Below the pieces are notes generated by a model, which saw only the letters and a list, made by a program, of their open reading frames with translations, had not been told where the DNA came from and did no database searches. The position numbers and the translations under genes are program-made. A stretch of 64,000 bases of DNA. Source: Escherichia phage Pu-Krd-SF3. Below, piece after piece: positions 30,875 through 31,964 of this stretch. Where the stretch lies: sequence record PQ249397. One strand, given 5' to 3'. Every line of letters begins with the position of its first letter. Position 1 is the stretch's first letter.

Positions 30875-30984
30875 AAAATGCGCCTTTAAACGGTAACGTT
30901 TATCGAAAACTCCTTTAATTGCTGGAAAGTCCTTTATAGGAAAACTAGCAGCCAAGGTTTTGCTTGCACCTTTAATTAGTATAA

Positions 30985-30992
30985 TATAAATA
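30985..30992 (+). promoter_or_regulatory. late promoter (TATAAATA) inside the nrdB intron, upstream of I-TevIII
   Basis: exact TATAAATA 28 nt upstream of the I-TevIII start, followed by AAGAGGA RBS. Confidence 0.45.
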
Positions 30993-31019
30993 TGATTATA
31001 CTTTTAAGAGGATGCACAA

Positions 31020-31829
31020 TTGAACTATAGAAAAATTTGGATAGATGCCAACGGACCTATACCTAAAGATTCTGATGGAAGAACATACGAAATCCATCAT
31101 AAAGACGGTAACCGTGAAAATAATGATTTAGATAATTTGATATGTCTTTCTATACAGGAACATTATGATATACATTTAGCTCAAAAAGACTACCAGGCTT
31201 GTCATGCTATAAAGCTCAGAATGAAATATTCTCCTGAAGAAATTTCTGAATTAGCTTCTAAAGCCGCAAAATCTAGAGAAATCCAGGTTTTTAATATCCC
31301 TGAAGTACGAGCTAAAAATATTGCCTCTATTAAATCTAAGATAGAAAATGGTACATTTCATCTTTTAGGTGGTGAAATACAGCGTAAATCTAATTTAAAT
31401 AGAGTTGCATTAGGTATACATAATTTTCAACAAGCTGAGCATATTGCAAAAGTTAAAGAACGCAATATTGCAGCTATAAAAGAAGGTACTCATGTATTTT
31501 GCGGTGGTAAAATGCAGTCAGAAACTCAATCAAAACGGGTAAATGACGGTTCACATCATTTCTTATCAGAAGACCATAAGAAAAGAACATCAGCAAAAAC
31601 ATTAGAAATGGTTAAGAACGGGACCCATCCTGCACAAAAAGAAATCACATGTGATTTCTGTGGTCACATTGGTAAAGGTCCTGGATTTTATCTAAAACAT
31701 AATGACAGATGTAAATTAAATCCAAATAGAATTCAATTGAATTGTCCATATTGTGGTAAGAAAGATTTATCACCATCAACATATAAACGATGGCACGGCG
31801 ACAATTGCAAAACAAGGTTCAACGACTAG
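31020..31829 (+). CDS. intron-encoded H-N-H homing endonuclease (I-TevIII-like, apparently intact)
   Basis: 269 aa from TTG start with AAGAGGA RBS; HNH core EIHHKDGNRENNDLDNL; C-terminal Cys-rich zinc-finger-like region. Confidence 0.8.
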   Translation: MNYRKIWIDANGPIPKDSDGRTYEIHHKDGNRENNDLDNLICLSIQEHYDIHLAQKDYQACHAIKLRMKYSPEEISELASKAAKSREIQVFNIPEVRAKNIASIKSKIENGTFHLLGGEIQRKSNLNRVALGIHNFQQAEHIAKVKERNIAAIKEGTHVFCGGKMQSETQSKRVNDGSHHFLSEDHKKRTSAKTLEMVKNGTHPAQKEITCDFCGHIGKGPGFYLKHNDRCKLNPNRIQLNCPYCGKKDLSPSTYKRWHGDNCKTRFND

Positions 31830-31964
31830 TCTTCGGACGTAGGGTCAAGCGACTCGAAATGGGGAGAATCCCTCCGGGATTGTGATATAGTCTGGACTGC
31901 ATGGTAACATGCAGCAGTTCATAAGAGAACGGGTTGAGAATTAGCGAGCTCAATCGAACATACG

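Follow-up and report, generated by a model that had tools for sequence, protein, structure and literature searches.

The question raised by the nrdB locus of Escherichia phage Pu-Krd-SF3 is what kind of element interrupts this gene, and whether that element is still able to splice and to move. In the 64,000 nucleotides (nt) analysed here (sequence record PQ249397; hereafter the window), two stretches of nrdB are separated by 1090 nt that contain a long open reading frame (ORF); exons, ribozyme helices, ORF and expression signals all lie on the plus strand. An earlier note on this DNA had proposed an undeleted, potentially homing-competent version of the T4 nrdB intron, and this is the best reading of our data: the residues essential for the endonuclease are kept, and the ribozyme core equals that of T4 bar one loop base. 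With a probability of about 95%, judged from sequence comparison, the insert is an RB3-type, full-length T-even nrdB group I intron with an intact gene for the endonuclease I-TevIII, and the element is very probably competent for both splicing and homing.

The boundaries of the insert can be placed exactly. Exon 1 (30199-30874) comprises 225 codons and the first base of Cys226, ending with ...UUU GCG U, in which U30874 marks the 5' splice site; the intron (30875-31964, 1090 nt) ends with ...AUACG and the terminal G31964; exon 2 (31965-32467) starts with GU ACC UUU..., completes Cys226 and continues for 166 codons and a stop. The spliced gene of 1179 nt, with the junction UUUGCGU/GUACCUUU and the frame ...FYVSFACTFNFHKNMEIMEGNAKIM..., encodes a NrdB of 392 amino acids with one full Ribonuc_red_sm domain (6.3e-37). 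When 300 nt of the artificial exon junction are used as a query, many phages match in one unbroken piece, and the intronless nrdB of vB_EcoM_FJ1, likewise 1179 nt long, is 97.5% identical to the spliced gene without any indel. The junction reads GCGT/GTACC in the window and GCAT/GTACC in FJ1, the Cys codon that the intron splits 1+2 is conserved, and the insertion point is unambiguous because a shift of the boundaries by one base in either direction breaks the match to FJ1. The end of exon 1, the end of the intron, its length and the spliced reading frame had all been given in the earlier note, and every coordinate proved exact.

The end of exon 1 differs between alleles with and without the intron: it reads TTTCGCAT in FJ1, the one intronless allele examined, and TTTTGCGT in six of seven intron-bearing copies, the seventh (HY03) having TTTCGCGT. 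The pairing of GCGU in the ribozyme helix P1 is kept in all seven. These differences fit the co-conversion of exon markers during homing together with a need for pairing in P1.

A different picture is given by the record of Escherichia phage Pu-Krd-SF4 (PQ759884.1; source listed as piglet faeces, Russia; host E. coli B; a T4-like genome), which is 100% identical to the window at the same coordinates (megablast of 30700-32100). Here nrdB is annotated as two separate coding sequences (CDSs), 30199..30876 and 31988..32467, as would be expected if the insert were not a functional intron and an endonuclease gene of the free-standing type had split nrdB into halves that are translated separately. 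Other T4-like phages do have nrd genes that were split when an endonuclease inserted, as with mobE of Aeh1 (PMC2988022). However, the first annotated CDS reads into a TAA of the intron, and the second, which begins at an internal ATG, would miss 7 conserved residues, whereas the U...G boundaries restore an unbroken frame through the conserved, split Cys codon. Moreover, a complete group I core, backed by covariation and matched significantly by Rfam, is built from the flanks of the ORF, and this ribozyme is, bar the one loop base, that of the T4 intron, whose splicing is well established (PMC1865063, PMC2790892). We therefore regard separately translated halves as a most improbable explanation. 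The proper nrdB feature is join(30199..30874,31965..32467); the intron ORF itself is already labelled 'intron-like DNA endonuclease' in PQ759884.1.

The group I core was located through the ORF-less form of the same intron. Helices were placed by the Rfam alignment of the copy in vB_vPM_PD112 together with inspection by hand, on window coordinates, the 5' helices being taken from PD112 because the Rfam E-value scan forced 5' model positions onto the ORF sequence. The 5' half of the ribozyme (30871-30963) holds P1 (30871-74/30880-83), P2 (30888-92/30897-901), P4 (30920-25/30945-50) and P5 (30930-33/30938-41) as well as the 5' strands of P3 (30910-15), P6 (30951-53) and P6a (30957-63); the 3' half (31807-31964) holds the corresponding 3' strands of P6a (31807-13), P6 (31816-18) and P3 (31861-66) along with P7 (31824-28/31888-92), P7.1 (31829-31/31836-38), P7.2 (31842-46/31851-55), P8 (31867-72/31876-81), P9 (31897-903/31908-14), P9.1 (31917-20/31927-30) and P9.2 (31934-38/31949-53). 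All 70 pairs of these 14 helices are canonical or G-U. In P1, the last exon base U30874 forms a wobble pair with G30880 of the internal guide sequence at the splice site, the next three pairs are G-C, C-G and G-C, and the conserved core P3-P8 with its P3/P7 pseudoknot is present.

In an alignment of the two ribozyme halves of seven copies (window, RB3, T4, PD112, UTK0003, HY03 and DCP80), 489 of 489 cells are paired (100%), with compensatory changes at 8 pairs in P2, P5, P7.2, P9 and P9.2. Six slid controls gave 0 compensatory pairs, and none of 500 shuffles reached the observed values. P1, P3, P4, P6, P7, P7.1 and P9.1 are invariant in the seven copies, and for these helices the support is complementarity and the Rfam alignment. 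From the identity of its core with that of the T4 nrdB intron we infer a group I intron of the IA-type subgroup that splices itself in a guanosine-dependent manner. The ORF sits in the terminal loop of P6a, and its 3' end reaches into the ribozyme: the final 23 nt, with the TAG at 31827-29 among them, coincide with 3'-strand sequence of P6a and P6, with J6/7 and with the 5' strand of P7.

The stretch 31884-31962, from the 3' strand of P7 to P9.2, also matches short unannotated stretches of unrelated phages (82-96% identity over 50-114 nt), among them Pectobacterium podophages and phages of Klebsiella, Vibrio, Aeromonas and Pseudomonas. To judge from these alignments, the matching stretches probably belong to group I introns of this subgroup that reside in other genes.

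The ORF in the P6a loop (31020-31829; TTG start, TAG stop; it contains EIHHKDGNRENNDLDNL) encodes 269 amino acids and matches PHROG 12324, 'intron-like DNA endonuclease', from end to end (1-269/269, 5.9e-191). Its H-N-H catalytic module (31029-31163, residues 4-48, with H26, H27, N39 and H48) is recognised by Pfam HNH_3 at 2.4e-12, which bears out the full-length ORF with a complete HNH core that had been read from the sequence before. At the other end lie two zinc fingers of the form CX2CX12-13HX3C (31650-31808; residues 211-231 and 242-263, with C211, C214, C242 and C245), the DNA-binding and dimerisation domain (roles from PMC1865063). In the RB3 enzyme, the mutations H26A, H27A, N39A and H48A abolish cleavage while binding is retained, and the double mutants C211A/C214A and C242A/C245A no longer bind zinc or DNA (Robbins et al., PMC1865063). 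All eight of these residues and both zinc-finger motifs are kept in the window. The RB3 record annotates the identical frame and start as I-TevIII; numbering from the TTG agrees with that of PMC1865063 and a mass of 30.7 kDa is computed, close to the published 30.8 kDa, and this agreement of numbering and mass supports TTG as the start codon. A comparison with the copy of Salmonella phage vB_SenM_UTK0003 (88.9% DNA identity) gave a synonymous divergence (dS) of 0.61 and a nonsynonymous divergence (dN) of 0.067; the resulting dN/dS of 0.11 (0.11-0.21 in the I-TevIII family) indicates that the ORF is under purifying selection as a protein.

Between the two domains, the linker (31357-31637, residues 114-206) contains four tandem units of about 21-24 amino acids, each ending with G-x-H (GIH132, GTH156, GSH177, GTH201), and a related NGTFH is found at residues 110-114. 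At least four GxH motifs occurred in 128 of 10000 shuffles, and the units match no Pfam repeat family; they may constitute a 'beads-on-a-string' DNA-binding repeat. A Pfam FlgM match at residues 74-117 (26.6 bits, cut-off 25) was judged spurious, as it covers a Lys/Ser/Ala-rich, likely helical stretch of a DNA endonuclease. Among solved structures, a search with the I-TevIII sequence yielded no meaningful match (best E = 0.18) and with it no structural template.

The signals expected for regulated expression of an intron ORF are arranged ahead of the TTG. An RNA hairpin (30965-31016) is formed by the stem 30965-73/31007-16 (-14.9 kcal/mol, z = -3.46; one of 200 shuffles folds as well), and its 3' arm pairs with AGAGG of the Shine-Dalgarno sequence AAGAGGA (31006-31012), which lies 7 nt ahead of the start codon. 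The T4-type late promoter box TATAAATA (30985-30992) is situated in the loop of this hairpin, with 27 bases between the box and the TTG; an exact late promoter upstream of the ORF was among the claims of the earlier note, and its position is right. The hairpin can form only on transcripts begun further upstream, and late transcripts from TATAAATA would lack the 5' arm: RNA of 30998-31060, starting just past the box, has no significant structure (-2.6 kcal/mol). RB3, T4 and UTK0003 have kept the box; in the ORF-less copy of PD112 the loss of 2 nt has destroyed it. As far as can be told from its layout, this promoter-in-hairpin arrangement is the published T4 late-expression switch for intron ORFs. 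Just upstream of the promoter, a stretch at 30954-30975 is identical to the exon junction (-12..+10) at 17 of 22 positions, a match reached by 4 of 1000 shuffles. Operator sites that resemble the homing site have been proposed upstream of each intron ORF, for I-TevIII as an idea (PMC2988022), and 30954-30975 is accordingly a putative I-TevIII operator.

For the comparison with T4 and RB3, five intron copies were aligned. The T4 nrdB intron is 598 nt long and lacks window positions 31084-31574 (491 nt, a length not divisible by three) as well as base 30938 in the loop of P5. The missing segment is flanked by an imperfect 9-nt direct repeat, GAAGAACAT (31078-31086) and GAAGACCAT (31569-31577), which suggests a deletion mediated by slippage or microhomology. 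This deletion removes the H-N-H domain and shifts the frame; the T4 frame from the TTG stops after 22 codons, and the 97-amino-acid 'defective' ORF annotated in T4 starts at an out-of-frame ATG, re-enters the I-TevIII frame past the deletion and retains the zinc-finger C-terminal end only; PHROG 27406 (97 amino acids, the T4 remnant) matches residues 173-269 of the window protein. Over the 597 shared nt, the T4 and window copies differ by two substitutions, both in the ORF, and the one indel; they share splice sites, promoter and hairpin, and the ribozyme halves are identical bar that one loop base.

The RB3 nrdB intron (Eddy & Gold 1991; Robbins et al. 2007, PMC1865063; X59078, KM606994) shares gene, insertion point and architecture with the window copy and is 98.3% identical in DNA. 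Its ORF likewise encodes 269 amino acids from the same TTG, with the same promoter, hairpin and zinc fingers, and the two introns are set apart by 18 substitutions and a single indel of 1 nt, the two proteins by six amino-acid changes. Over the shared bases, 7 substitutions and 2 indels separate the RB3 copy from that of T4, and the P9 hairpin and P6a of the window carry T4-type rather than RB3-type bases. By this measure, the window copy is a closer full-length relative of the T4 intron than the RB3 copy is. Previous work found RB3 I-TevIII to be active and the RB3 intron mobile, and identified the T4 version as a deletion mutant (PMC1865063; PMC2790892, citing Eddy & Gold 1991). The statement in the earlier note of a shortened T4 intron and an intact RB3 form is thus correct, and the pairwise alignment with both introns that it had proposed has here been carried out.

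A third form of about 304 nt, found in vB_vPM_PD112 (intron 1201-1504), BYEP01 and DCP80, has the same ribozyme at the same insertion site and is devoid of the ORF. It lacks window positions 31016-31800 (785 nt) between two ACAATTG repeats (31016-31022 and 31801-31807), the first of which includes the TTG start codon and the second of which lies 22 nt ahead of the stop. The Shine-Dalgarno sequence and the hairpin arms are retained, and the late promoter is lost through the 2-nt deletion mentioned above. From these remains, the endonuclease gene seems to have been lost secondarily and cleanly from the ORF-less copy, with the ribozyme spared. Alternatively, the 304-nt intron could be the ancestral state into which the ORF was inserted later; we judge this to be less likely because the Shine-Dalgarno sequence, the hairpin arms and the damaged promoter make sense only as remnants of expression signals.

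The anatomy of the window element, its exact junction, its conservation, the purifying selection on its ORF and the covariation of its RNA are directly established. Several observations nevertheless weigh against an intact and mobile intron. Firstly, the window intron stays below the gathering score of RF00028 (50 bits), and nothing over the whole window reaches the threshold: the match obtained (35.7 bits, E = 9e-7) spans 31674-31914, and only the 3' half is correctly aligned. This low score arises because the ORF and its signals (843 nt in the P6a loop) split the core; where the ORF is naturally missing, as in the 304-nt PD112 copy of this intron, the whole model is matched with 68.6 bits, above the gathering score. 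The sub-threshold score is a limit of the model with about 840 nt in P6a and not evidence against an intron. Secondly, TATAAATA occurs 12 times in the window against 8.6 expected, and the octamer alone is not beyond chance; the case for a role of the copy at 30985-30992 comes from where it lies, from its being conserved in copies with the ORF and from the published mapping in T4. Thirdly, even the RB3 enzyme is weak and labile, with 4.3% homing (PMC1865063).

The remaining objections concern the I-TevIII allele itself. It shares 263 of 269 residues with the RB3 protein, without indels, and the six substitutions (window residue, position, RB3 residue) are Y23D, I41M, V90I, G117D, G246D and T265A. 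Y23 lies three residues ahead of the catalytic His pair and I41 within the H-N-H module; G246 falls within zinc finger 2, at a position where Asp stands in RB3, T4 and UTK0003, and I41 likewise is absent from RB3 and UTK0003. An identical protein was found in no other phage record by tblastn, the next best being 98.9% identical. Since degenerate introns arise repeatedly, it is conceivable that the intron splices and that its I-TevIII is impaired in catalysis or DNA binding, which would render the element immobile and leave it to decay as in T4. Yet the ORF is full-length without frameshift or stop, the essential residues are kept, the substitutions are few (2.2%) in a family under strong purifying selection (dN/dS as given above), and, unlike the ORF-less copy with its lost promoter, the window copy has promoter, Shine-Dalgarno sequence and hairpin intact. 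An impaired allele appears unlikely on balance, and we retain the full-length intron with an intact I-TevIII gene as the preferred reading.

For splicing, late expression, cleavage and homing we draw on the near-identity to the T4 and RB3 copies and on the literature, from which the following course may be proposed. The early/middle nrdA-nrdB transcript would carry the intron, which would fold into a ribozyme of the IA type (P1-P9.2) in which P6a loops out the ORF, and would excise itself between U30874 and G31965, the spliced message yielding the normal NrdB of 392 amino acids. On such long transcripts the ribosome-binding site of I-TevIII would be locked in the hairpin and the ORF would remain silent during ribozyme folding, which matters because the 3' end of the ORF overlaps P6a, P6 and P7. 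Late transcripts would begin at TATAAATA in the hairpin loop and would have no 5' arm, leaving the Shine-Dalgarno sequence free, and I-TevIII would be made. Where an intronless relative infects the same cell, I-TevIII, as an H-N-H/zinc-finger dimer, would bind across the insertion site and cut the strands 14 and 16 base pairs upstream, leaving 2-nt 3' overhangs (PMC1865063); mobility, cleavage at -14/-16 and dimerisation have all been reported for RB3 I-TevIII (PMC1865063). Repair would then copy the intron and the flanking exon markers into the recipient, and the intron-containing allele would be protected, as the intron splits the binding site.

The inheritance of the nrdB intron in T4 relies on mobE (PMC2790892). 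RB3 has mobE between nrdA and nrdB, unlike the window phage, in which the gap between these genes measures 51 nt (30148-30198) and holds no mobE. UTK0003 has a 'homing endonuclease' CDS at the mobE position; T4 has mobE in this gap according to PMC2790892, and the T4 GT7 record shows only a hypothetical CDS of 252 nt there. PD112, with the ORF-less intron, and the intronless FJ1 are also without mobE, and from this pattern it follows that intron and mobE assort independently. It might be speculated that the window copy rather than that of RB3 represents the lineage behind the defective T4 intron, and that without mobE the nrdB intron must persist through the activity of I-TevIII itself, possibly as an allele (Y23, I41, G246) that differs from the weak RB3 enzyme in activity or specificity. 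We consider this combination doubtful.

The full-length intron is, by the database matches, common and not a rarity, being present in about 85 phage genomes. With the 1090-nt intron as a query, 190 phage records match, 84 of them over at least 80% of the query, and tblastn with I-TevIII finds 87 full-length records in phages of Escherichia, Shigella, Yersinia, Klebsiella and Salmonella. The T4-type remnant is present in roughly 30 further records and the ORF-less form in roughly 9, both numbers being estimates from ranked matches sampled at even intervals. An nrdB query matches 763 records, and about one in nine T4-like phages carries the full-length intron. Degenerate introns recur both as the T4-type 491-nt deletion and as the PD112-type 785-nt deletion.

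The T4 td intron with I-TevI, which also has a presumed counterpart in the window, and the nrdD intron with I-TevII are likewise group I introns in genes of nucleotide metabolism, with an ORF looped out of the core, expression from a late promoter in a hairpin and cutting away from the insertion site (PMC2988022). I-TevI and I-TevII are GIY-YIG enzymes acting as monomers, in contrast to I-TevIII, a dimer with H-N-H and zinc-finger domains (PMC1865063). I-HmuI, from a group I intron of SPO1, resembles I-TevIII in its H-N-H motif and extended, modular DNA-binding region (PMC1865063); unlike I-TevIII, it is a monomer, nicks one strand and also cuts intron-containing DNA.

As to the gene context, the order is nrdA (27883-30147), nrdB exon 1, intron ORF, nrdB exon 2, denA (32495-32905) and rnlA. 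Between the nrdB stop and denA lies a GC-rich hairpin (32468-32495; GGGCCGCAAGGCCC and a T-rich run) that resembles a terminator; a weak Rfam match to L20_leader (32376-32502, E = 0.28) was dismissed, as it corresponds to the 3' end of nrdB plus this hairpin. The td gene (region 25476-27352) is split in PQ759884.1 in the same manner as nrdB, into CDS pieces at 25476-26027 and 27038-27352, with a 245-amino-acid 'homing endonuclease' at 26156-26893 between them. What interrupts td is presumably its group I intron with I-TevI, and this too went undetected by Rfam at the gathering threshold over the whole 64-kb window. A further annotated, free-standing 'homing endonuclease' is found at 21551-22183, directly after a helicase-loader (gene 59-like) CDS, and one copy of TATAAATA (22081-22088) falls inside this gene.

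The element described here is a further copy, in a deposited genome, of an already known and experimentally characterised mobile intron; the only points particular to this locus are that its copy is closer to the T4 intron than that of RB3 and that it occurs in a phage without mobE. Its value lies mainly in the correct annotation of nrdB in the deposited record. Together, the full-length, T4-type deleted, ORF-less and intronless alleles illustrate the cycle of gain, decay and loss of homing endonuclease genes, and a phage that carries the intron and lacks mobE could allow the homing driven by I-TevIII to be measured without the effect of mobE that confounds T4 crosses.

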